Shown here piece by piece: positions 44,251-61,471 of a stretch of 61,471 nt of DNA. Positions within the stretch are counted from its first letter, which is position 1, and each line of letters starts with the position of its first letter. Origin of the DNA: an uncultured Lentisphaerales bacterium (lineage in GTDB: Bacteria > Verrucomicrobiota > Lentisphaeria > JABSQK01 > UBA12247); assembly GCA_943788985.1 (NCBI GenBank), contig CALSSJ010000014.1, positions 1 through 61,471 of the forward strand. The letters run 5' to 3'. The notes beneath the pieces are model-generated. The model worked only from the letters and a program-made list of their open reading frames with translations, did no database searches and was not told where the DNA came from. The translations under genes were made by a program, and so were the position numbers.

Positions 44251-45739
44251 ATGAAACCCGCGATACTGATGATCGGAGCAGTCTACCTGCTTGGCACGCT
44301 TACAGCCGGCATAGCTGCTGAGCCGGTGAAGTCGAGTGCACCAAATATTCTGTTTATTCTCACTGATGATCAGGGGTACGCCGATCTCAGCTGTAATGGG
44401 CATCCGCATCTCAGGACACCTCACATGGATAAGATTCGGAACGAGAGCGTGCGGCTCGAGAACTTCCATGTCGCGCCGAGCTGTTCGCCGACTCGGGCTG
44501 GTTTGCAGACGGGCATGCACGAGTTCAAGAGCGGCGTCACCCATACTAAGCCCGGGGACAGACAGCAGCTAAGCCCAGAGCGGACCACGATCGGGCAGCT
44601 CCTGCAGAAGCAGGGCTACGCAACGGCCCTGTTCAACAAGTGGCACCTAGGAGGGCCCTCTCCTGATAAGCGTGGATACGACCTGTATCTCCGCACGGAA
44701 TCTCCGCCACCTCGTGCGACAATGATGTACTGGGACCCGACGGTATTCATCAACAATAAACCTCAGGGTGACCCGATTCAGGGATTCTCACCGGACATTC
44801 TCACGGATCAACTCCTCAAGACCATGACAGAGCAGGTGACCGCGGACAACAGCAAGCCCTTCTGCTACTTCATGTGGACTGTCACGCCACATACACCGGT
44901 CATGGCTCCGGGCAGGTACAAGGAACGCTTTGTTGGCAAGATGACGGAGCAGGAAGCGGCCTACTGCGGAATGGTCGAGAACATCGACGACAACGTCGGC
45001 CGGATCATGGCGAAGCTCCACGAGCTTGGAATCGACAAGGAGACGTTGGTCATCCTGATGAATGACAATGGCGGCACGGTGGGCGTGGAACTGTACAACG
45101 CCGGCATGCGCGGCACCAAGACCTCGGTCTGGCCCGGAGGAACGCGGGCCTTTTCGTATTGGCGCTGGCCCGGAACGCTGAAGCCGCGCACGGAGCATGC
45201 GCTCACCGGCTACGTGGATGTGTTTCCGACACTGGCTGAGATCGCCGGAGCAGAGATTCCGCAGGACATTGCTGCGGAGTTGGATGGCTACAGCCTCGTC
45301 GACTCTGCTGAAGTCGGCGGGCGGTGCGTTTCCGCGCGATCGGATGCTCTTTCTCCATGGGGCGCGCTGGGAGAGCGGTTTTGCGGAGCAGCACAAACAC
45401 ATCCAGGCAGCGGTGCGCCAGGGGAACCACTTGGCCATTCGCATCGATACCTGCCCCTGTAGAGAGGGCGTTTGTGCCAGAGGGCGAGCCGCCCAAAAGG
45501 GCACGATCGGTCCCGCCGTATACACCTCAACAAAGGAGAGCAGCGCCTTTCATTGGTCTGTGACAGACGGCTGGGAACTCTACGATGCAAGGAAGGATCC
45601 AAGCTGCAATTCGAGCTTGTCGGCGGCCATGCCCGAACTGCAACAGCGACTCACTGCCTCATACGAGAAGTGGTGGGATGACGTATATCCCGAGATGATG
45701 AAGCGAGGCGGCGATGCCCCGATCCCAACTCAAAAATAG
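44251..45739 (+). CDS. Arylsulfatase family protein, frameshift near 45305
   Basis: Signal peptide, PNILFILTDDQG, CSPTR, KWHLG, DNG; C-terminus (WELYD..KDP) in ORF 45197-45739. Confidence 0.88.
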
Positions 45740-47232
45740 TAAGACCCCCTCAGACAGCTCCAACGGAGGACGCACTCCCGTCTTCGCACCCAATTCGGCT
45801 TTCTTGTCAGCCTTTATGATCGGACTACTGGCTACAGCATTTCTGTCGTTGGGTTGCCTGGCCGAAGAAACAAATTCGAGCCCCAACGTCATCTTCATCC
45901 TGACAGATGATTTGGGCTATGGCGACCTTTCCTGCTATGGGCAGAAGAAGCTCAAGACGCCGAATATCGACCGGTTGGCTTCTGAAGGTCTGACATTTAC
46001 CGACTTCTATTCCGGCAACACGGTCTGTTCCCCTTCCCGCTTCTCCCTGATGGCTGGGCAGCACCCGGGGCATGCTACATGCCGGGGGAATGCGGGTGGA
46101 GTCAGAACACTCGATCCGCAGATGACGACCTTGGCGAAGGTATTCAAGAACGCTGGCTACGCCACCGGGATGTATGGCAAATGGGGACTGGGAACCACAC
46201 ACGCAAAGACCGATGAAAATCCTTTGCGTCATGGATTCGATGTGTTCTACTGCTGGGAAACGCAGGGCACGGCCCATACCTACTTTCCCATACATATGGT
46301 CGAAAACGGTGAGTTGATTGATGTGCCGGAGGGCACCTACGTCCACGATGTGATGGTGGAGAAGGCATTCGCCTTCATCAAAAAGAACGCTGAGCAAGAG
46401 CAGCCGTTCTTCTGCTACATGCCAGTGGCGATTCCTCACGCGGCGATGCACGCGCCGAAAGAGCTGCACGAGAAATGGCGCAAGGTATTTCCTCAGTTCG
46501 ACGGCAAGATCAGTCGCTATGGCGCAGGCAATAATGAGCCGTGCCCAGAAGTGGTCAATCCCATCGCCGGCTATGCTGCCATGATGGAGAATCTCGATAA
46601 TCAGGTCGGTGAACTCCTCGCGTTGCTGAAGACCTTGACCATCGATGCCAACACGCTGGTTGTGTTCAGTAGTGACAACGGCGGCCATTCAGCCGGTGGG
46701 CATGACCGTATCTTCTGGCGTTCAAGTGGGCCGCGTGCCGGGCTTGGCGCGCTGGCCCGGCGTCATCTCTCCCGGAAGCGTGACGGACTTTGTCAGTACC
46801 GCATGGGATATCTTGCCAACCATGGCTGATATTTTGCAGCAGCCCGTACCGCAGCAGTGTGATGGCATATCGCTTTTTCCCGTGCTTAAGGGCGGCACGG
46901 CGAAACAGCCGACCTATCGTTACTGGGAGTTCTGGCGCGTATTGCCGAAGGGCTCACGCACGAAAGAGTATCTCGATAAGCAGGGCATTACCTGCCAGGC
47001 GGTTCGCTCCGGCAAGTGGAAGGCCTTTCGTGGCTATGGAAACCACAACCTCAAGGGCTTCCAGGACAAGCCTCCAGCTCCCGACTGCGACATGGAACTC
47101 TATGACTTGGAAGCCGACCCGGGCGAAACCACCAACCTGGCCGCTGACTATTCTGAAATCGTCGACCGCATGGCGGCCTACATGGCTGAAGCGCACACGC
47201 CTTTGAAGACAAAACCGAAAACGAGACGATAG
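45714..47232 (+). pseudogene. Arylsulfatase family protein with frameshifting internal deletion near 46730
   Basis: PNVIFILTDDLGYGD, CSPSR, GKWGLG, SDNGG; the usual LRG.K..LYEGG segment between SSGP and RVP is absent; C-terminus in ORF 46645-47232. True start probably near 45817. Confidence 0.8.
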
Positions 47233-47235
47233 CCG

Positions 47236-48645
47236 GTGAACCAACTCAAGAGACTCACCCGCCTGCTTGTCTTAGCCGGCTGTGTCCATTCACTTCTTGG
47301 CGTGGCTCCTGCCAAGCCCAACATTCTGTGGATCGTGACGGAGGACATTGGCTGCGATATGGCATGCTACGGCACCAAGGGCGTGCACACGCCCAACATG
47401 GATCAACTGGCCGCCGAGGGGACGCTGTACACTCGTGCCTACACCAGCGCGTCCATCTGCAGCCCAAGCCGCTCTAGCTTTATGACCGGGCTTTATCCGC
47501 ACCAAGTCCACTCCAAGAACATGCGGATTCGGCCGCCATTGAAGAAGAAGCCTCTGCCTGATGGCGTCGACATCTTCACCAAGTATCTGCGCGATGCCGG
47601 CTACGCCATCGGCTTTCCGGGGCACGGCAAGAAGGATTGGGGATTTATCGAGCCCACTTCTCCGCCCTACGACATCGGGAATTGGGATAGCCTGACGCAG
47701 AAGCAACCGTTCTTCTGTCAGTATCAGTTCTACGACACCCATAGGGTAAACAAGAAAATCGACGGCACGTTCTTCCCCTTCCTCCCTTGCCCGGAGCACC
47801 CTGTGGATCGTGCCAATGTCGAGCTTCACCCGTATACGCCCGACACACCCGAGGCCCGTGAAGAGTTAGGCGCTTATCTCGAAAACGTCAATCTGCTGGA
47901 CATGAAGATCGGCGCGTTGCTCGCCGATCTGAAAGCCAAGGGCCTCTACGAGACTACGATAATCGTGGTGATGGGGGATAACGGCCCGCCGATCTTTCGC
48001 GGTAAAGGCTTCCTCTACGAACGTGGCATTCGGATGCCCTTGATCGTGCGTATTCCCGAACGCTTCAGCCCGGGGGTGAAGCCGGGTACGATCACGGATG
48101 AGTTGGTCTCTGCTTTGGACATGGCGCCCACCTTCATTGATCTGGCGGGTGGGACAATCCCCGACTACATGGAAGGCCGCATTTTCTTCGGGCCGAATCA
48201 ACAACCAGAGCCCGAGTATCTGTTCGCCATGCGGGATCGCCATGGGATGAACGTGGACCGCTGCCGCAGTGTGGCTTCGAAGACCGACAAGTACATCCGA
48301 AACTACGTCCGCGGCATGACCTGTTTCGAGAATAGTCTCGGCAATGTGGCTGGGAGCCGCGCCGGCCTGAAACTCTTTGAGCAAGGAAAACTCTCCGCTG
48401 CGCAGGCTGCCTATTATACGGACAAGCCCGAAGAGGAACTTTACGACCTAACCACAGATCCCTTTGAGCTTAACAACCTCGCTCAAGATCCAGCCCGGGA
48501 GGAAACGCTCACAAAATTCCGGAAAGCACTTACAGGCTGGATCGATGAGACTGAGGACGACGGCGCATTCGAAGATCCTGACGCGCTGAAGGAAATGGAC
48601 CGCCTCTTTGAGCGCCAGAAGCAGCGCCGGCGTACAGGTAAATAG
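47236..48645 (+). CDS. Sulfatase family protein
   Basis: Signal peptide, KPNILWIVTED, CSPSR, GDNG, KG.LYE.G.RMPLI, EELYDL..DP.EL.NLA. Confidence 0.93.
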   Translation: MNQLKRLTRLLVLAGCVHSLLGVAPAKPNILWIVTEDIGCDMACYGTKGVHTPNMDQLAAEGTLYTRAYTSASICSPSRSSFMTGLYPHQVHSKNMRIRPPLKKKPLPDGVDIFTKYLRDAGYAIGFPGHGKKDWGFIEPTSPPYDIGNWDSLTQKQPFFCQYQFYDTHRVNKKIDGTFFPFLPCPEHPVDRANVELHPYTPDTPEAREELGAYLENVNLLDMKIGALLADLKAKGLYETTIIVVMGDNGPPIFRGKGFLYERGIRMPLIVRIPERFSPGVKPGTITDELVSALDMAPTFIDLAGGTIPDYMEGRIFFGPNQQPEPEYLFAMRDRHGMNVDRCRSVASKTDKYIRNYVRGMTCFENSLGNVAGSRAGLKLFEQGKLSAAQAAYYTDKPEEELYDLTTDPFELNNLAQDPAREETLTKFRKALTGWIDETEDDGAFEDPDALKEMDRLFERQKQRRRTGK

Positions 48646-50885: not shown

Positions 50886-52025
50886 CTACTTTCCGCCTTC
50901 GGTGAGAAAGCCGAGCGCTAGCGCCATCTCGACTTCGGTGCCATTCTCATCGACTAGCGTCACTGTTTCTGCGTCGCGCCGCTGGATGTCGGTGACCCGC
51001 CCAAAGCCGGCAGGTGTTGGGCAGGCAGCCATGATGTAGTTCACGACCAACGGCTCATTCGGGTCTAGCTCTACCGTTGTGGGAATTCCCTGTTCCCGTA
51101 AGGAGTTGGGAGCGGCAGAGCGGGCTAAGCCGTAGTGGAAGTAGGCGGTGATTTCCTCCATGCCGAGGACATTGCGATGCCGCCCGTTCCAGGGCGCATA
51201 GTGGCGCCCACCGTTGGACCACCAGTAGAGGGTGGAACTCAGGACCCGCGGATCCTTGATGCTCAACCAGACATAGCCGAGATCTGGATAGCTGACTGCG
51301 TTCCAGGCAAAGGGCAGTGTTGGGGCATCGCACTGGATGAAGATGTCTTCGAAGCCACGACGCAGGGGAAACTGGGTGAGGTCTGCTGTGGTTCCAAACA
51401 CTGTTGGACAGGCGGACAGGTCGTCGATGATCGCGCCTGGTTGCAAGCACGAGTAGCCGCCTGTTGCTGGATCCTCCGCCGGGTCCACAAACACCTGGCG
51501 GTGGATCTTGCGACTGCTGGAAAGGCGCCCGGATCCTTCGACATCCGGAAACTTCAGGCAGGCATGATGGCCGATGGGAATGGGGCCCGTGCCGCCGCTG
51601 ACCTGATGCTGAGAATAGATCGCGTTGTGGCCAGGGCGAAGGGAAATCCGTTTATCGACCACTGCGGGGCGGACGTTGGATTCCATTCGCAGATGCAACT
51701 CATCGGCGGTGTGCGTCACCAGTTCCCAGTCGAGGTTAGCTGTGGCGCCATGGACCTGATGGTCCTCGCCCTCCCAGACCTCGTCGTTGCCGCCAAACGG
51801 CATGCAGAAAAAATCACCGCGGAGTGACCGAATAATCGGCGGGGTATCTGGTGGGAGGTCTTCCTCTGCCCACGGGGCTACTGCATACGGGCGGATGGCT
51901 GCGCCGCCGCGGGCAAAGGTGACTGGTGCCAGATGGCCACCGGTCCGTGTGACGAATAACTCCACCTCTGCGTTTGCCAGTCGCCATGAAGGCTGCCCGG
52001 CTACCGTCGTCATCTTGCTTGGCAT
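50886..52025 (-). CDS. Galactose-mutarotase/aldose-epimerase-like fold protein
   Basis: GDFFCMPFGG, HG.TAN..W, GHHA, W..NGGR..APWNGR...LGMEE. Confidence 0.7.
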   Translation of the reverse strand: MPSKMTTVAGQPSWRLANAEVELFVTRTGGHLAPVTFARGGAAIRPYAVAPWAEEDLPPDTPPIIRSLRGDFFCMPFGGNDEVWEGEDHQVHGATANLDWELVTHTADELHLRMESNVRPAVVDKRISLRPGHNAIYSQHQVSGGTGPIPIGHHACLKFPDVEGSGRLSSSRKIHRQVFVDPAEDPATGGYSCLQPGAIIDDLSACPTVFGTTADLTQFPLRRGFEDIFIQCDAPTLPFAWNAVSYPDLGYVWLSIKDPRVLSSTLYWWSNGGRHYAPWNGRHRNVLGMEEITAYFHYGLARSAAPNSLREQGIPTTVELDPNEPLVVNYIMAACPTPAGFGRVTDIQRRDAETVTLVDENGTEVEMALALGFLTEGGK

Positions 52026-52156
52026 GCTCACTCTCCCGTTGCGCTCTCATTCAACATGGCGCATTGTAGCGCTTGTTGCCGCGCATCGCAACGCCAAGAC
52101 GCTTCCGGGGTAATAATTTTTTTGTGCCCGACCTTACTACTGATGCGGAATAGACA

Positions 52157-52642: not shown

Positions 52643-52949
52643 GTAATATCCAACGGCCCGAGGCCGCCAGTTTACCCGTGCCCCCATATACCGATGGTCC
52701 TGCTACTAATCTCGGTACGACGCGTCTCCGTGCCCGTCCCCACTACTATCAGAGTGACGCGCACGGAGACGCGTCATACGGGCTCCCGGAAGAGCGTTAC
52801 TTACCGTCAGCCTTCGCGACCGGTTGCCAAACTTGGAGCTGGATCCAGAACCGCGCTGCGGTCCTTACAGGAATGCTGGCGGAAGCGCACCAGCCTGCAA
52901 GTCCATACGGCAGGGGGGAGTGGATTTTAAGTCGGAATTAATTGATGAA

Positions 52950-53041: not shown

Positions 53042-54458
53042 GTGTGCGTGGGACGAGAAAGAGAGTTAGCGCTACTGCATGAGTTTCGCGAGCGGCGCAC
53101 CGCGGGCCTGGTGGTTTGCCGGGGGCGCAGACGCATTGGTAAAAGCACCCTGATCGAGCAATTTGGCCAGCACTGCCGTTTTTACGAATTCTACGGTCTG
53201 GCACCGCGTGCGGGCATTACCAATGCAGACCAGCTGGCGCATTTCGGGGAACAGTTGGGCGCAGCCTTCAATCTGCCAGCGATGCATTTCCGCAATTGGC
53301 ACGACGCATTAAGCACCCTTGCGGGGCTGACTGCAGAAGGGGAGATCGTGATCCTGCTAGACAAGATTTCCTGGATGGCGTCGAAGGACAAGGACTTTGC
53401 CGGCAAGCTCAAGGGCCTCTGGGATAATCGTTTCAAGAAGAATGACCAACTAGTCCTGGTGCTTTGCGGCTCGGTGACCTCGTGGATCGACACCAATATC
53501 CTGAATGACAAAGGTTTTGTCGGGCGTGTGTCGCTCACCCTCACCCTGGACGAACTCTCCTTGTTTCACGCCAACTTGTTTTGGGGGTGAGACCACCGTG
53601 TCGGATGCCGAGAAACTCCGGCTTCTGTGTGTCACGGGGGCGGTGCCCCGGTATCTTGAAGAGATTCGCCCTCGCCAAAGCGTTGCGCAAAACATCAAGC
53701 GCATGTGCTTCTCGCCTGAAGGTCTGTTATTTAGCGAGTTTGAAAAGATTTTTCATGACATTTTCGCGCGGCGGTCCGGGAGTTTTAAGAGAATTGTGCA
53801 CGCGCTTTCGGGCCCCGCCTTACAGCCTGGAGAGCTATGCCAGGCACTGGGTGTGAAGCCCACCGGCGATCTTTCCGAAAAGCTCGCGATTCTGGTCGCA
53901 TCCGGCATGGTGGCTCGCGACTACAGCTGGGATCTGTCAGGGCAGCAGACCGCCATTAGTCGCTATCGGATACGCGACAACTACCTGCGGTTCTACCTCC
54001 GTTACATCGATGGCGGACACAGCAAGATAGCCCAGGGCCTCTACCGGGACGTCCATCTCGAAAACCTGCACCGCTGGGATACGATCATCGGACTTCAGCT
54101 TGAGAATCTCATTCTCAACAACCTCACGGCCTTGATCCGCCGTCTTGACATCGCGCCTGAAAGCATCATCAGCGCCTCGCCGTATCGGCAGCACCAGACC
54201 AAGCGTCACGATGCTTGTCAGGTCGACCTGCTTATCCATACCCGCAACAGTGTTGCCTATGTCTGCGAGATCAAGTTTCGCGGTAAGATCGAGAATTTGG
54301 TGATCGCCGAACTACGGCAGAAGATCAAACGTATGCTAGGAATGGCTGGCAGGTCCATTCGTCCCGTGCTGATCTATCACGGCGAGTTAGCCCCTGGAAT
54401 TAAGGAAAGCGACTTCTTCTCGTATTTGATTCCCGTCGGGGAGTTTCTGCACCAGTAG
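53042..54458 (+). pseudogene. Archaeal-type AAA ATPase with C-terminal PD-(D/E)xK-like (DUF234-like) domain, frameshifted
   Basis: VGREREL, GRRRIGKS, Walker B reads LLDK rather than LLDE, LCGS; frameshift at the T/G runs near 53579-53587; C-terminal QVDLLI...CEIK. Confidence 0.82.
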
Positions 54459-54495
54459 TGAGACCGTGCAGGCCGACAGGCTCTCGGAAGAGCGT

Positions 54496-54873
54496 TTACT
54501 TACCGTCAGTCTTCGCCACCGGTTGCTCTACCTGGAGTTGGATGAGGTGACGGAGCATCAGCATTTTGGTGAACTGCAGGGTGGCGTGCCTGCTTTGATC
54601 GACCGTCAGTGAGAACTCCGTACGAAGCTTCTGCTCAATGCTACGCAGGTCACGTTTGCCGTCCACCTGGCTCCAGAAGAAGCTGCCGTGAGCATCGAGG
54701 TTTACACGAATGTTACGATAGAGGCGAAACTTGCGGATGAGTTTGGCACCAAAGCCGGAACCGCGCTGCACTGGCATGCGAATCTGGCAGCAGTTGTTCT
54801 GATCCAGCAGAACCTCCGCCATCGGGTTGTGACAGGGAACGGCCTCGAACGGGTTTTTTGCCGGAACAGCCAC
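54496..54873 (-). CDS. PqqD-family / RiPP-recognition-element-like small protein
   Basis: VNLDAHGSFFWSQVDGKRDLRSIEQKL..EF......A..QF..ML..RHLI; GTG start 11 bp after the transporter stop. The 238-aa track ORF is over-extended. Confidence 0.8.
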   Translation of the reverse strand: MAVPAKNPFEAVPCHNPMAEVLLDQNNCCQIRMPVQRGSGFGAKLIRKFRLYRNIRVNLDAHGSFFWSQVDGKRDLRSIEQKLRTEFSLTVDQSRHATLQFTKMLMLRHLIQLQVEQPVAKTDGK

Positions 54874-54884
54874 ATCCGGTTTGG

Positions 54885-57013
54885 TCAAAACGGTGCGCCC
54901 GAGATGGCGTTCTTCATCAGTTGCATGGCGATGGTAAACATACTGATGAGGCCGACGCCGGTAAAGTAGCCGGCCATGAGGGCAGGGGCCTGTTTGAGGA
55001 AGTTGGTCTGGCCGTACTTCTTCTGAAACCAGTACCGGCCAAGGAGTGCCCCCAAGACTTCGAGCACCATGGTATGCGGCAAGGCCCCAAAGCCTCGGAC
55101 CATGCCGTAGATCAGCATGATCGGCAGGTTGAAGGCGGAGAGCGCACCGTAGAGGATTACGCAGCCGACAAAGCCAGCTCCGATTACTTCGGGATGTACA
55201 GCTTTTTTCCAAAATTCGCTGTTGGTGATGCTCTTCTCATTCGGGTCCTCTCCGGGGACGATATGGGTGGAGGAGAACAACAGCACTTGGTTCTTGGCCT
55301 GCAATTCCCAGTTGATCTGGGCCGCAGGGAAGACATCGGAAGGAATTGGGTTGGCCTTCCAGATGAAGCCCCAGAGGAAGAGGGACAGGACAAGGAGAAC
55401 CGGTAGGGCCACGAGGTCGGTTTTAAGCAGCGACCCAAAGCGGACACCGGTGAGTTCGTTAATCCGAAATGACTGGGTCATAGGACCAAAGTTCTCGATC
55501 GGTACTGGTGCCAGCCAAATGTCTACACCTTTGGCGCCAGAGAGCAGAAAGAAGGTCTCGCGCACGAAGGGAATGTCGACGGACTGGCCGGAAATTCCTA
55601 GGAGCCGGGCGTTGACGTAGGAGAGCAGAGGGCTGTAGATAAAGGCAAAGATCAACAGAAACGCCAGGATACTGAAGGACTTAGGCAAGACTACGTAACA
55701 GAGGATGACGACCGACGCTGAGGAGATGATGTAGGCGACGATGGCAATCCAGAGCGGGCAGTCACCGCGTTCGCCGTTGGGCGGCGCCCACAGGTCCACA
55801 CGCTTCTCTTGCTGTTTCTTGTGCTTGCGAATTTCGCGCATTTTTCCGGCTGCATCTCGGATCGAGGCGATCAGGCAGACGGCGGCAATCCCCAGCCCGG
55901 AGCCAATGCCGAAGCTCATCCAGAAGTCCATGGAATTGGCGAAGGTGGTATTGACGGTGTCCATGCCCGGGCGCCAAGTTGGCAGGTAGCCAGTGAGATG
56001 GAGTAAAGGATTCATGATGGCCGTGAGCAGAATGGCAATGAAGGTGCCAATGACGGACCAGAACGGCAGAACGAAGCCGAGAAAGACGATACCAAGGTCC
56101 ATGACCACACCAGTCGGTGTGGCAGGCAGCAGCGTCTCGGTCATGGTCGTGGTGTCGACGAATGGCTGCGGGACCAGAGAAGAATGGCTTGCTCAAGAAC
56201 AAGCCCCGATGATCGCCGGGATGCCGACTTGGATGAAGCCGAAGGCCAGGCCAATGGTCACGCCCAGCGAGAAGATGCGGGCGCGCGTGCTTTTCTGTCG
56301 CTTGCCTGGCTTGTCGGGGACGGCACCCTCTGCATCATCATCGCCTGTGGCCTCGCCGTTGGTCTGCTCCGGCCCGTCTTCGACGCCATCGCTCTCCGCG
56401 AGGGCCATGGCACCCTGAGCGGCAATGGGTGCGAGGGGGAAGGGCAGTTGCTCGATGTCAGAGGTCAGCCGGAAGAAGACGTAGCCGAGTGCATAGCGCT
56501 TGATCAGGGTGACGACGGTGAGGAAAACAATGATTGCAATGGGCACGAACCAATCGACGTGAAAGAGGTCACGATTGAGAATGGCGGGGCTGTCGGGCGA
56601 CGGGACGAACCAAGTCGGGAAGGCGTTATACATGCCGGCATCGCGCGCCGCATCACTCCCAGCCAAGTAGGCGCGATAGACCATTTCGCCCATTGGCCCA
56701 CCTGGAAAGAGCACGTGGCCCATCATCATCACGCTGGCAGCATGCAGCAACACGACCAGGTGCTGTTTGGACATCGGTTTCATGGCGCGGCGAGCAATCT
56801 CCATGAACAGAATCACGGTCACCCACGAGGCCGCTGAGCCAATGCCCTGGCCGGTCATCAGTCCCAGGTAGATGCCGCCAGGCATCATCACGAGGCCGCA
56901 AAAGATGATGCCCACTACGGTGGGACCAGCCGAAGCCATCCTTGAACTCAGTGGGAGTTTCGAGTAAGGAGCGGTAGAGCTCTTACCTCTTTGTCTACGG
57001 GTTTCTCAGCCAT
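54885..57013 (-). CDS. OPT-like multi-TM peptide transporter, frameshifted near 56190 and 56920-56990
   Basis: Many TM helices, DIEQLPFPLAPIAAQGAMALAE, YVNARL.G..GQ, DIWLAP.P; reconstructed start MAEKPVDKEV overlaps the upstream stop. Confidence 0.75.
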
Positions 57014-60000
57014 GGTGGGCGGTGCCCTCCTGGTTCAGGAGTTTTTGTGCCATGAGCTCACTGGCCTCGGTAAACATCTCGCTGCGGTCTTCCTCGCTCA
57101 CAGCACGCCAGTGGAGGAAGTGCTTGCGCAGCTGGGTCACGAAGCCATGATTGAGGCGCAGCCACGACTCGCTGCTGCCAGACTGGCGGACCAGTGCGAT
57201 GTGGGCGATGAACTCGCCTGTTGCCGCATCGGTAGGCAGCGAGATCAACATGCGCTGGGAAACACTAAGGTCGTAAGGCTTGAGCCAGATGGTGGTGGCA
57301 ATCTGTGGGACATACGCTTGCTCAGCTAGGGCGTCAAGCTCGTCGGCCAGTCCCATTTCCGGAGGCCCAGCGAAGAAACGGCCTGAGCTTCCCTCGCCGT
57401 GATTCTCCATATAACGATGGAAGAAAGCGAGCACGGCGATGCGATCGCGATGCGTGAAGGTGAACGGAAGGTCGAAGCTGAGCACGTCCTCCTTAGGCTC
57501 CGGCAGCTTCCAGCCAGCATCGTCGGCCGGGCTGGCGACCTCCATGGCCGTGCGCGCCGGAAAAATGGTCGAGAAAATGGTGGATGCAGCCACTGCGATT
57601 GAGGCGTAGATCGTAGTCACTGAGGTAAAGGTCATATTTAGTCCGCCGGTTAGCTCCATCTCGGTCAGGATGCGGCCGACGCCTTGGCTGAGGAGGTAGC
57701 CGAGCACTGCACCGACCACCGAATAGACGACGGCCTCGGCGAAGAACATGAAGAAGACGTAGCGCGGGGCAATTCCGATGGCGTTGTAGACGTAAATCTC
57801 CTCCCGTCGCTCATAGACGGAGCCCTTGAGCGTATTCAGGACCACCAGGCCGGTCATGAGCAGTGGCACAAGCATGTCGAGCAGTCCGGCAAGGCTGGCC
57901 TCACGCGCTCCGCTTACCAAGGTAGGCGATTCCATCCAGGCCGTAATAGACGGCGCGGGCGCTTCGCTCCATGTAGGTTTCGATCCGCTCGCGGGCATCC
58001 GCGAATTGCAGGCCGGGCATGGAAACTGCGATCGATGAAATGATCTTCTTGCTGTACATGCCTTGGCAGGAAGGTGGATCGCGGTCTATCGGAAAAATGA
58101 TGATGTGGCTGGCTGGGAGGCGAGGCGCATCTAGATCGGCTAACACCTGCCAGGTAACGTTGTCCAGGCTGACGGTTTCCAAGGCGTCGATATCGAAAGG
58201 CAGCAGGTCCTGACCGTCGAGGTCGCGCAGGTTGTCCAAGGATTCTGCTGCGAAGATCGCAACCACGGGGTGCACCTGTGATTCGATCGTCACAGTTGCG
58301 CGTCCGGCTTCGATATCAGCTGGGGAAATGCCCAACTCTTCTGCCGCAGCATCGGGGATTATCACTGGTGCTGGCGAGTCGGAGAAGATGCAGTCCTCCG
58401 CCGTGAACCAGGCCTTCTTACCGATGAAGCGCAGCTGATCACGAATCGGATCGCGATCGTTGAAGGTCAGAATTGAGGAGAATTCCACCGCGCGCCGAGC
58501 CCCTTGATCGGACGTGAAGACTGCCTCAATCTTCGGATTTTCGTAATTGCTCTCCCAGTCGATGCTCCCGATCAGGAAGGTGCGTGGGCAGATGTCGTAG
58601 ACATGCCCGTATTCTTCATTGAGCGCGTAGACCTCGCCGGTTGTCATGCCGCGGAACCGCTCCTGCTTCACCAGAAAACCCTGGTAGTTGGCCTTGCCTA
58701 GGGAGATCTGCTTGTCCACGAGGTCGGATTGCACAGACGTGAAGCAGATCATGACAAAGGTCATCAGGACCAGGGTGGCGCAGGTGAGGGGCCCGGTACG
58801 GACTTTACGCCGGTGCATGTTATTGAGCCCCAACATCACGGCCGAGCCGATCGCGCTCATCATCTTCACATCCGCGCCTTTGACCTTGCCGGAACGCTTG
58901 CTCAACTCCTCCAGATTCTCACTGAACTTGCTGGAGGCCAGCACCGTCACGCCGCCAGATATGATCATGATGATAAAGCCCAGCAAAATCATCAGCGACG
59001 AGCGGACCATCGAGAACGCCGGATGCAGGATATTCAATAGCGTATAGGCCACTAGGAAAATCACGGCCTGAGCGGTGAGTTGCTTGCGAATATCGCTAAA
59101 GCCGAAGACCAGTTTCTCGAAGAAGAAGACAAACGGCACCAGCAGCCCTAGATACCAGAGAATGCCGAGGACGGCTTCGAAGATCGACTCGCGCAGGACT
59201 GGATGGTTGTGGATCGAGTAGGTGATGGATTCGCGCGCCTGGCGGACAGCATCGGCCAATGGCAGCTCCCCGCTCTCACTAGCGTCGCTTAGCTCCTGAC
59301 CCTTCTTCTGATAGGCCACCGTTCGTTCATCAGCCATGTTATGATGCACCAGCAGATCGAGCCGTCGACCGTTCAACGACGCCATCGAACGCGCCACATC
59401 GAAGGCGACATCGCTGATCAGTTCACTGTCTTGGGCGAGGTAGCCAGCACCATCAATCTCGCGGTCTGGATCGGGCACGAAGTCGTCTTCAATGTTCAGC
59501 ATGAAGGCCCGGGTTTCATTGGCAAACTCGTTGTCGGCTGTGCCGGACAGCAGCTTGATATAGACGGTCTCGTCCGGCGAGACAAAGGTCGTCTGGATGC
59601 CGTCCTGCGTGCCGGAGAATGGAAACCGGCAGGTCTTATCCAAGGCCGCCAAGCCGAACTTATCGACGAACTCCACGCCGGAGTACTCGCGCATGGTCTG
59701 CGGATTCAGCAAATCCAGCAGGGTGACAGGCGATGCCCGGAAGGTGACGATCGTGACCGACTCCATGATTTCCTTGACCCAAGTGGCAATCCCGGTGGAC
59801 TTGAATAGTCGCTGCCCGGACGGCCCTTCATCCTTCATGAAATGGATCAGCCCATCCTCACCGTAGCCGACGGCGAGCGGCGCATAGCCACTCACATGAT
59901 GGGTGGCAAAGCCGAGGACGTGGTAGGGCAGGGCGTAGTTTCCGTACGGGTCTGCGTGATACAGTGGGTGATCGTAGTAGCCCGCTCTTATTGGGACATT

Positions 60001-61471
60001 CGGCAACCGTGCGCCCGCTATCAGCGCCCCGCTTAGGGGGAAGTTGGGCACCATGGATTGGCCTACATTGGAGACCAACACGCTGCCGCCGAGACTGACG
60101 TTTGCCGAATTAGCGGGGATTTCTGCGGTGCGGCCCTTAAACTCGCCGGGATTGCTGCCCATGGCGAGGGCGAGAACCACTTCACCGGTCAGGTGCAGGG
60201 AGTGGCCCACACTGTCGAGTTCGGACATGAACGGCAGCGCGACAGGGAATATGTACTTTTGGTAGGAGGGGCCGCGGTTGTAGTTGATCGGTGCGAAGAA
60301 GGCATAGCCAGCGTATCGGCCCATCGCAAGAATGAAATGCCCGGGCGCGCCCATGATGTGTGAGAAGTTGTCGTTCGCCCGGCCCTGCACGTTCGGCTCG
60401 ATTTGCAGTTCTGAGGCAGCCAGCCCGCGTTTCTGTTGGGCCCAGACGTACAATCCGTCGAAGATCTTAGGCTGGTTGTCGATGTTGTTCCCGGCCAGAA
60501 TCGTCAACTGCTCACGGGTTTCTTCTTGGGATGCTGGGGCAAAGTACGGATGGATAAACACCTTCTCGTTGTAGCTACCCAGCAGGTCGATGAGGGCCCG
60601 GTCTTGGACCAGCTGGCCCTGGCGGCGCTCGTGGTAGCTCAGTAGCTCGCTGAAGCGACCGCGCCAGCGCGCACTCAGCTGACGCTGCTCCATGAAATCC
60701 TGCTTTGTGCCTACGATCTGTTTGAGGCCAAACCCAGCCACGGACATGGCTCGCTCGTAGTGGGACTTGGCTTCCTGGTAGGCTTTGAACTCCTGGCTCT
60801 CGATACTCGCATCAGCCAACTTCTCAAAGGCGATCTTGGTCTGCAACGTTGGCTCAGACAGCTCAAGAATCAGCGCATTCATGACATAGTCAATCTGCTC
60901 GTCGAAGAGGGTGCGAGCCTTCTCGGACAGGGCCTTGACCGCCGACTGAGTGGCGTCTGGTTCCAGAAACATGCCAGGGGAGTCAAGGGCTTTTGCGATC
61001 TCCGCAAGCAGCGCCAGCGAGGCGTCGTTGGCGAGGGTCTGCGCCTCGTTCTCAAGCCCGGTTTCGGATACCGCAGCGGCATCTTCGGAGGCTGATTCAT
61101 TGCCGCCCAACGCCCGCAATACAGGATTCTCATCCTCGGCCAGAGCGCCGGCGTTCGGCCCATGACCCGAAGCAGGTTGTACTTGCCGTCGTGACTCATG
61201 GCCTGGCCACCAAAGCTGACGAAAATTACATCGCGGTGCAGTTGCTCGCGGTAAGGAAGCAGACCTTTCAGAGCCTGGAGATGCAGGGCGGGGCCGACCG
61301 CTTGCATGGTGCCTGGCGCAAGGTCGGGCAGGACTGAGCAGGCGTCGTAGTCGCAGCTCAGCAGCAGCGCTGGCGGCCTCTCTGCGGAGTTCGCAGTCGC
61401 GCGCATGACGCCGACCAGCGTGGTATGCTTGGTGGAGGCAAACTCAGTGCGTACGTTCAAGGTTACTGAGC
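57006..61471 (-). CDS. Giant FtsX/MacB-like permease fused to a degenerate M28-peptidase-like region; 5' end outside the window; frameshifts near 57910 and 61120
   Basis: FtsX signature SVYERREEIYVYNAIG...EA; NMHRRKVRT..LT before the periplasmic core; upstream LLLSCDYDA...PG...RDVIFVSFGG is M28-like. Confidence 0.8.

Follow-up and report, generated by a model that had tools for sequence, protein, structure and literature searches.

What does a small protein with the fold of an RRE, the recognition element of peptides that are made on ribosomes and modified after translation (RiPPs), do when the genes in front of it encode membrane transporters, not peptide maturases? The question is raised by one end of a 61,471-nucleotide contig from an uncultured Lentisphaerales bacterium (genome G000; the whole contig, G000:C14, is the window referred to below), where genes for a giant permease, an OPT-like membrane protein and a PqqD-like protein follow one another on the minus strand. 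An initial annotation, made from the DNA letters, read this trio as an undescribed membrane complex for peptides or glycopeptides. The three-gene observation is confirmed, the genes are intact, and they form the tail of a larger conserved system that also comprises a DUF6785 protein, a small FtsX permease and two ATPases. We give about an even chance to the reading that this multi-subunit membrane machine couples a type VII ATP motor to OPT-fold carriers, exchangeable as in transporters of the energy-coupling factor (ECF) type, and imports bulky nutrients. The three genes are:

57006..61471, minus strand: giant permease, 5'-truncated by the contig end (from Pfam, orthologues, profiles and contig L036).
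54885..57013, minus strand: OPT-like polytopic membrane protein of ~700 aa (from orthologues, and PF03169 in homologues).
54496..54873, minus strand: PqqD-like RRE-fold protein of 125 aa; a basic helical insert separates strands 2 and 3.

Are these genes what they seem? The giant's open reading frame (ORF) reaches from the contig end at 61471 to its stop codon (57008-57006). The window contains about 1,487 codons, and ~245 N-terminal residues lie outside it, giving a whole protein of ~1,730 aa as against 1,697-1,721 aa in orthologues. The OPT-like gene begins with an ATG at 57013, overlapping the giant by 8 bp, and stops at 54887-54885; its product is ~60% identical to orthologues from the same taxonomic order. 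After an 11-bp gap the PqqD-like gene extends from a GTG at 54873 to 54496. The initial annotation had proposed checking apparent indels against reads. Frame breaks at 61158, 57908, 56983 and 56922 are missing from the contigs of all four runs assembled (three DNA, one RNA), and a 3-base insertion at 58790 is missing in 3/3 DNA runs. A local slip with a TGA near 56195 corresponds to one-base gaps in 3/3 DNA runs, at low depth and at differing positions. Contig L036, which comes from a metagenome and is 99.77% identical across 3,858 nt, carries the giant in a single open frame; it also supplies the gene start that had been sought, with the ~245 absent residues and an 870-aa DUF6785 gene directly upstream. 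The 5' end of the giant was found on no other G000 contig. Since the independent contigs are intact, the frame breaks are assembly errors, and programmed frameshifting and pseudogenes are ruled out.

In the closest orthologous loci (genomes G009, G001 and G006) the genes are ordered DUF6785, giant, OPT-like, small FtsX, ATPase, PqqD-like, ATPase. G000 has its small FtsX gene and both ATPase genes on another contig, at C17:156369-158933. The search for an ABC ATPase suggested earlier thus ended at G000:C17:157403-158933, with two LolD/MacB-type enzymes in which Walker A, signature, Walker B and His switch are all present. The displaced small FtsX and the two ATPases are 47, 77 and 75% identical to the in-operon copies of G006. 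In a quick tree of 55 rows each ATPase groups with its matching in-operon counterparts (SH-aLRT 100), the two belonging to distinct clades. A single contig of run X4 spans the motor locus, and in runs X2 and X4 depth there equals depth on the window; the separate location is therefore real. Two metatranscriptome runs gave contigs over the cluster and the motor locus, and over their neighbours as well; with no silent control this is not an expression result. At least half of the sampled sequence words occur in 18 of the 24 listed runs, 17 of those 18 being labelled marine or estuary metagenomes. G000 also carries a second, complete cluster, a paralogue, on C7. The motor genes on C17 follow, on the same strand, the genes at G000:C17:151948-156135 (L142), which we take to be two peptide-ABC-permease-like genes and a mannosyltransferase-like membrane gene. 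Contrary to the first reading, the trio is not the whole machine, while the system it pointed to is real.

How firmly does the set hold together elsewhere? We searched 151 genomes of the class, a set made up of assemblies at least 85% complete and G000. The OPT-like protein matches in 45 of them, and the C-terminal domain of the giant, the PqqD-like protein and DUF6785 in 44 each. All four markers are confined to the same 45 genomes, with none in the other 106, and the two exceptions to co-occurrence are 86%-complete assemblies; some of the genomes counted are related to each other and do not make independent cases. Within families the distribution is patchy (16/37, 1/40 and 2/20), and the system is retained in genomes of 1.7-1.8 Mb. 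The OPT-like gene lies within 900 nt after the giant in 88 of 90 matches, both misses falling at contig ends, which bears out the suspected synteny. Of the RRE matches, 64/79 lie within 20 kb of the core (one half-gene row dropped). Sixty loci of 20 kb, two of them overlapping, contain the OPT-like gene in 59 cases, DUF6785 in 56, an ATPase in 47, the small FtsX in 43 and the RRE in 34. A further protein of ~290 aa with two internal repeats, here called the helper, usually adjoins the RRE gene and occurs in 19/60 loci (for example L022:6094-6966); it has no Pfam or PDB match and is absent from the subtype of the window. In the rest of the phylum the giant's marker domain is present in 43/300 other genomes, and the OPT-like gene adjoins the giant in 19 of 20 loci, the remaining one stopping at a contig edge. 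Judged by the source names of single proteins, homologues of the subunits extend to Phycisphaerae, Planctomycetota, Armatimonadota and Bathyarchaeia. The OPT-like profile gathers 920 representatives at E 1e-10 or better, and a plasmid collection held no match to the protein.

Pfam applied to the window's own pieces recognises the FtsX domain in the C-terminal piece of the giant and, barely above cut-off, PqqD (E 4.2e-5), and finds neither M28 nor OPT there; similarity to M28/PA and OPT proteins emerges via orthologues and profiles. Three regions of the giant stand out:

61190..61400 (approximate limits), minus strand: remodelled M28 active-site region; the first Zn-binding His, the bridging Asp and the catalytic Glu-Glu are replaced.
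57543..57863, minus strand: FtsX-like permease domain (PF02687; Pfam E 2.9e-15).
57024..57539, minus strand: conserved cytoplasmic C-terminal domain, the family marker; no Pfam or PDB sequence match.

The protein is built from a signal anchor, a PA/M28 pseudo-peptidase ectodomain, a further ectodomain, three transmembrane (TM) helices, a MacB/FtsX four-TM module and the cytoplasmic C-terminal domain; its hydropathy shows the N-terminal anchor, the three helices and then MacB-type 1+3 helices. The FtsX module is not the last domain, since the conserved ~170 aa of the cytoplasmic domain come after it. PDB profile searches with this domain and with the mid-ectodomain returned nothing useful, which is not evidence of new folds. 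One end of the giant profile matches MacB, YtrF, LolF and LolC, and MacB_PCD is detected at E 6.9e-8 in an orthologue. The other matches PA-M28 aminopeptidases (E 6.5e-23; 2ek8), nicastrin (E 6.6e-8) and nicalin (E 2.9e-6). The catalytic Glu-Glu is found in 0/18 aligned copies and in 0/117 rows that cover the site among 120 homologues, with HxD in 12/117. Across this closely related 117-row set conserved Arg, Asn, Asp and His occupy the former M28 site, which suggests that a pocket has been retained. An active peptidase is rejected, the catalytic residues being lost, and the pseudo-peptidase head first proposed holds up.

Nicastrin and nicalin are non-catalytic members of membrane complexes, and RREs bind protein segments. 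The machine might thus serve membrane-protein assembly or quality control: a nicastrin/nicalin-like head would recognise clients, the motor would remodel them, DUF6785 proteins would be adaptors or clients, and the RRE would bind client N-termini. Active PA-M28 aminopeptidases match far better than either protein, however, and the likeness may be one of shared fold only. The distribution is patchy and no protease or insertase gene occurs in the loci, and we regard this role as improbable.

If the motor is of type VII, what are its OPT-fold partners? More distant OPT-like homologues exceed the PF03169 cut-off (E 3e-13 to 1e-17), the window pieces and close orthologues give no match, and a comparison of the OPT-like and DUF6785 profiles by hhalign gives probability 92 and E 5e-7. 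DUF6785 itself is predicted to have the OPT/YS1 fold. Its model (45 sequences, pLDDT 87, pTM 0.89) is best matched by barley YS1 (PDB 7WSR), well above all else, with Z 21.1 and rmsd 4.5 over 553 residues, and Foldseek returns YS1 at E 2e-6. The excerpted text of PMC9691689 describes YS1 as a homodimeric, proton-coupled importer of the elevator type, with Asp446/490/494 as its proton-coupling acidic residues. The DUF6785 protein of this locus carries a ~165-residue jelly-roll insert that resembles a carbohydrate-binding module (CBM) and is present in 10/60 loci; it matches CBM16, CBM22, CBM4 and a porphyran-binding module at Z 12-14. Other DUF6785 subtypes bear different inserts. The family is expanded and scattered, with 11 matches to two cores in the single-contig genome G035; in most genomes no more than nine candidates were scored. 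One stand-alone gene of G000 lies at G000:C11:105069-107441 between BacA/GT2 genes and an OsmC-YcaO gene, and a C-terminal DUF6785 fragment at G000:C17:31208-31780.

Among 12 longer OPT-like homologues scanned, eight carry inserted two-component-regulator propeller, WD40, PDZ or FGE-like domains; such inserts sit near the C-terminus in homologues of 820-1,080 aa (P0040, P0041, P0044, P0047, P0056, P0059 and P0061). Domains of this kind would suit a sensing complex, in which OPT-fold ectodomains bind ligands and the motor relays the signal to the RRE, the helper and the C-terminal domain of the giant, with no net transport; FtsEX too works without transport, according to an excerpt of PMC7828314. 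The loci examined, though, share no conserved kinase, regulator or other output gene, and we judge such a role decidedly improbable.

This brings us back to the RRE. The predicted model (pLDDT 88) shows the three-strand, three-helix winged fold and is closest to the lasso-peptide RRE TbiB1 (Z 12.0, rmsd 1.9 over 84 residues), and an Atlas search leads to PqqD clusters with a score of 0.94; the small protein is thus predicted to be an RRE. The hydrophobic residues of the leader cleft are kept (L59 in 31/33 sequences, an aromatic at 101 in 33/33, L105 in 30/33), with LppB as the reference (excerpted from PMC13381572). The helical insert has a net charge of at least +2 in 28/33 sequences.

Does the locus then belong to a RiPP biosynthetic or export cluster, with the RRE presenting a precursor peptide? 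The kept fold and cleft would fit, as would the in-frame fusion that, in one genome (G342, L124:1480-3348), joins the RRE and a family-5 solute-binding protein. Yet no radical-SAM motif occurs in the called genes of the 60 loci (one shadow-frame match falls over a DUF6785 gene). No maturase family turned up among the cluster proteins scanned, short precursor ORFs not having been searched for systematically, and orthologous loci have no RiPP genes upstream of DUF6785. The RRE also tracks the transporter genes genome by genome; unlinked copies stand beside motor genes, beside the helper gene or alone. A RiPP cluster is very improbable on these grounds, and none of the findings that would have spoken against the original proposal was made: the RRE fold is predicted, the trio is conserved, and no known RiPP cluster lies upstream in orthologous loci. 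An RRE that travels with a transporter and not with maturases is what had been foreseen. "Stand-alone", as the protein was then called, does not describe it functionally; it is co-inherited with the transporter genes.

What might it bind? We infer that a subunit of the machine is a more likely partner than the cargo, and one candidate is found in the window:

56920..57013, minus strand: acidic N-terminal tail of the OPT-like protein, conserved and cytoplasmic; candidate RRE ligand.

A motif of the form hydrophobic-x-x-Pro-x-x-aromatic, resembling leader motifs, is present in this tail in 26/32 aligned homologues. An RRE is present in 2/5 genomes whose only OPT-like protein lacks the tail, in 5/5 with the tail and in 5/5 with a mixed set, a link that is suggestive only. 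Several observations speak against a strict pairing. The tail aromatic sits one residue later than in the lasso motif; the equivalent of LppB N33 is Asp, and that of D70, the Tyr-binding Asp, is mostly Ala; of the two tail-less genomes with an RRE one has it at E 2.6e-25, and G342 is an exception to a strict link; and no RRE was found in three near-complete genomes that have the core. The idea that the RRE binds this tail is weak. The RRE is also fused in frame to the giant in genome G079 (L046:4240-10098). As in the G342 fusion, it there joins a signal-like stretch of an exported protein, and the two cases suggest that the RRE tolerates a membrane tether. As proof of contact with the giant the G079 fusion is rejected, the second one joining the RRE to an unrelated exported protein.

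How could such parts work as an ATP-driven importer? The type VII membrane domain would be a heterodimer of the giant and the small FtsX, with the two ATPases supplying the power. The constant OPT-like subunit would dock on the giant and pair with one DUF6785 subunit, as YS1 protomers pair with each other, and ATP would take over the part that protons play in YS1, that of driving the elevator stroke. In this way the OPT-fold subunits could supply the path across the inner membrane that a MacB-type motor would not. Cargo may be captured by the dead peptidase head together with the DUF6785 ectodomain. The scattered DUF6785 paralogues might act as exchangeable specificity subunits on one motor, like the S-components of group II ECF transporters, which are scattered and share a motor (PMC4245157, in excerpt). 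At the inner face of the membrane the RRE would grip part of a subunit that resembles a leader, the N-terminal tail of the OPT-like protein being the likeliest.

Several points weigh against this reading. Transport, its direction and its cargo are proposals from genes and models. According to excerpted text of PMC7828314, MacB is not believed to carry molecules through the inner membrane, and no precedent was found for import by a type VII motor. The OPT-like profile has no PDB sequence match; an OPT fold for this protein is putative, read from sequence. The jelly-roll insert has no Pfam or PDB sequence match and is equally like the jelly rolls of Eph, MAM and toxin proteins at similar Z, leaving sugar binding putative. 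Glycoside hydrolase, lyase or sulfatase neighbours occur at 4/19 stand-alone DUF6785 loci at E 1e-5 and at 2/19 at E 1e-10, compared with 6/19 random control loci at E 1e-10 (86/99 and 93/128 ORFs scanned, respectively, with one pair lacking a called DUF6785 excluded). Clustering of DUF6785 with carbohydrate-active enzymes (CAZymes) is rejected, there being no enrichment over random loci.

Many neighbours of the stand-alone genes are instead housekeeping genes, not catabolic ones, and one gene in G000 is near BacA and a GT2 gene. Such surroundings count in favour of an ATP-driven machine for envelope building or export, which would move or extract lipid-linked glycans, glycoproteins or lipoproteins as LolCDE or MacB do, with OPT-fold subunits that are flippase-like or selecting. 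The type VII systems that are known best work at the outer side (PMC7828314, in excerpt). Among NCBIfam models the ATPases come closest to LolD/MacB and the permeases to LolC/E, MacB and FtsX, in each case below cut-off, and retention in the small genomes mentioned above fits as well. Against export, the only solved OPT-fold relative is an importer, no MacA, TolC or LolA partner was seen among the cluster proteins scanned, and the system was not found in 106/151 genomes of the class, unlike a core envelope function. We consider export rather unlikely.

Returning to the importer, what would it carry? If this copy imports, a glycan or glycopeptide has a slightly better than even chance of being the cargo, a plain peptide is an unlikely though serious candidate, and anything else would be more surprising still. 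Peptide handling, as the initial annotation had it, is thus not favoured over glycan handling, given that the CBM-like jelly roll of DUF6785 points as much to glycans. A stronger form of the idea we put forward tentatively, as one joint claim: a new class of primary active importer, in which a MacB-type ATP motor drives the elevator stroke of a heterodimeric OPT-fold carrier, one half of the carrier being variable and exchanged among at least 10 scattered paralogues, with a dead aminopeptidase as outer receptor and a repurposed RRE clamping the leader-like carrier tail, and which occurs across Verrucomicrobiota, homologous subunits being present in Planctomycetota, Armatimonadota and Bathyarchaeia.

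The remainder of the window offers some side observations. The 3' end of the PqqD-like gene is duplicated in a direct repeat of ~68 bp (85-90% identical; 52778-52844 and 54476-54543) on both sides of a 1.7-kb stretch, with a strong hairpin at 52715-52779 beyond the far copy; the stretch looks as if it had been inserted between the gene and its terminator. Inside it lies an archaeal-type AAA ATPase gene (ATPase_2, E 8e-7; 53042-54458, plus strand), called as two ORFs that are probably one gene, because two DNA runs lack one base at 53321-53322. Sulfatase-like genes, assigned to their family by eye, stand in a row at 44251-48645 (plus strand), several apparently split by breaks resembling the demonstrated assembly errors. 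An ORF of 381 aa (50886-52031, minus strand) has no Pfam match at E 0.1.

What would follow from all this? If the importer reading is true, it brings together two superfamilies so far regarded as independent, the type VII ABC motors and the proton-coupled OPT carriers; it gives DUF6785/DUF6784 a function class, shows an RRE working outside RiPP synthesis, and points to a route of uptake, not recognised before, by which uncultured degraders of complex organic matter feed. It also cautions that genome mining built on RREs will report such loci as RiPP clusters, falsely. The locus itself adds read-level proof of intact genes, a split motor, RRE-transporter coupling genome by genome, a CBM-like insert, a negative CAZyme control and the RRE-tail hypothesis, and its genes are delimited precisely enough to go straight to co-expression and cryo-EM.

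How does the system compare with what is known? Each part is of a known fold or family, and the combination fits no known system; it falls outside the M28 peptidases, MacAB/Lol systems, ECF transporters and RiPP clusters. The literature, subscription journals and supplements not being covered, yielded no description of it, in keeping with the undescribed system first proposed.

With type VII ABC systems (MacB, LolCDE, FtsEX, YtrF, LolF) it shares the FtsX/MacB four-TM module with a periplasmic core domain, LolD/MacB-type ATPases with intact motifs, and the use of two different permeases as in LolC/LolE. It differs in a ~1,000-aa extra ectodomain that contains a dead peptidase, in additional TM helices and in a C-terminal domain on the cytoplasmic side, and in having two distinct ATPases and near-obligate OPT-fold and RRE partners, with no MacA, TolC or LolA seen; NCBIfam MacB and Lol scores all fall below cut-off, against membership of MacAB-TolC or LolCDE. 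The head shares the PA + M28 fold, by profile, with PA-M28 aminopeptidases, nicastrin and nicalin, whereas here the catalytic residues are lost and the domain is fused to an ABC permease. Discrete RREs (TbiB1, PqqD, LppB) have the same fold and hydrophobic cleft residues; the protein described here has in addition a basic helical insert, has lost the Tyr-binding Asp, has no maturase nearby and is co-inherited with a transporter.

Group II ECF transporters likewise combine one motor and two different ATPases with many scattered, likely exchangeable membrane subunits that outnumber the motor. Here, however, the variable subunit is an OPT-fold protein of 650-900 aa and not a small S-component, and 39 cluster proteins gave no EcfT or S-component Pfam match; the analogy is one of logic, not of homology. 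OPT/YSL carriers, finally, share with the system the predicted DUF6785 fold and PF03169 in homologues of the OPT-like protein. While YS1 is a stand-alone, proton-coupled homodimer, the present system has two diverged OPT-fold proteins tied to an ABC motor, one of them expanded and equipped with variable ectodomains.

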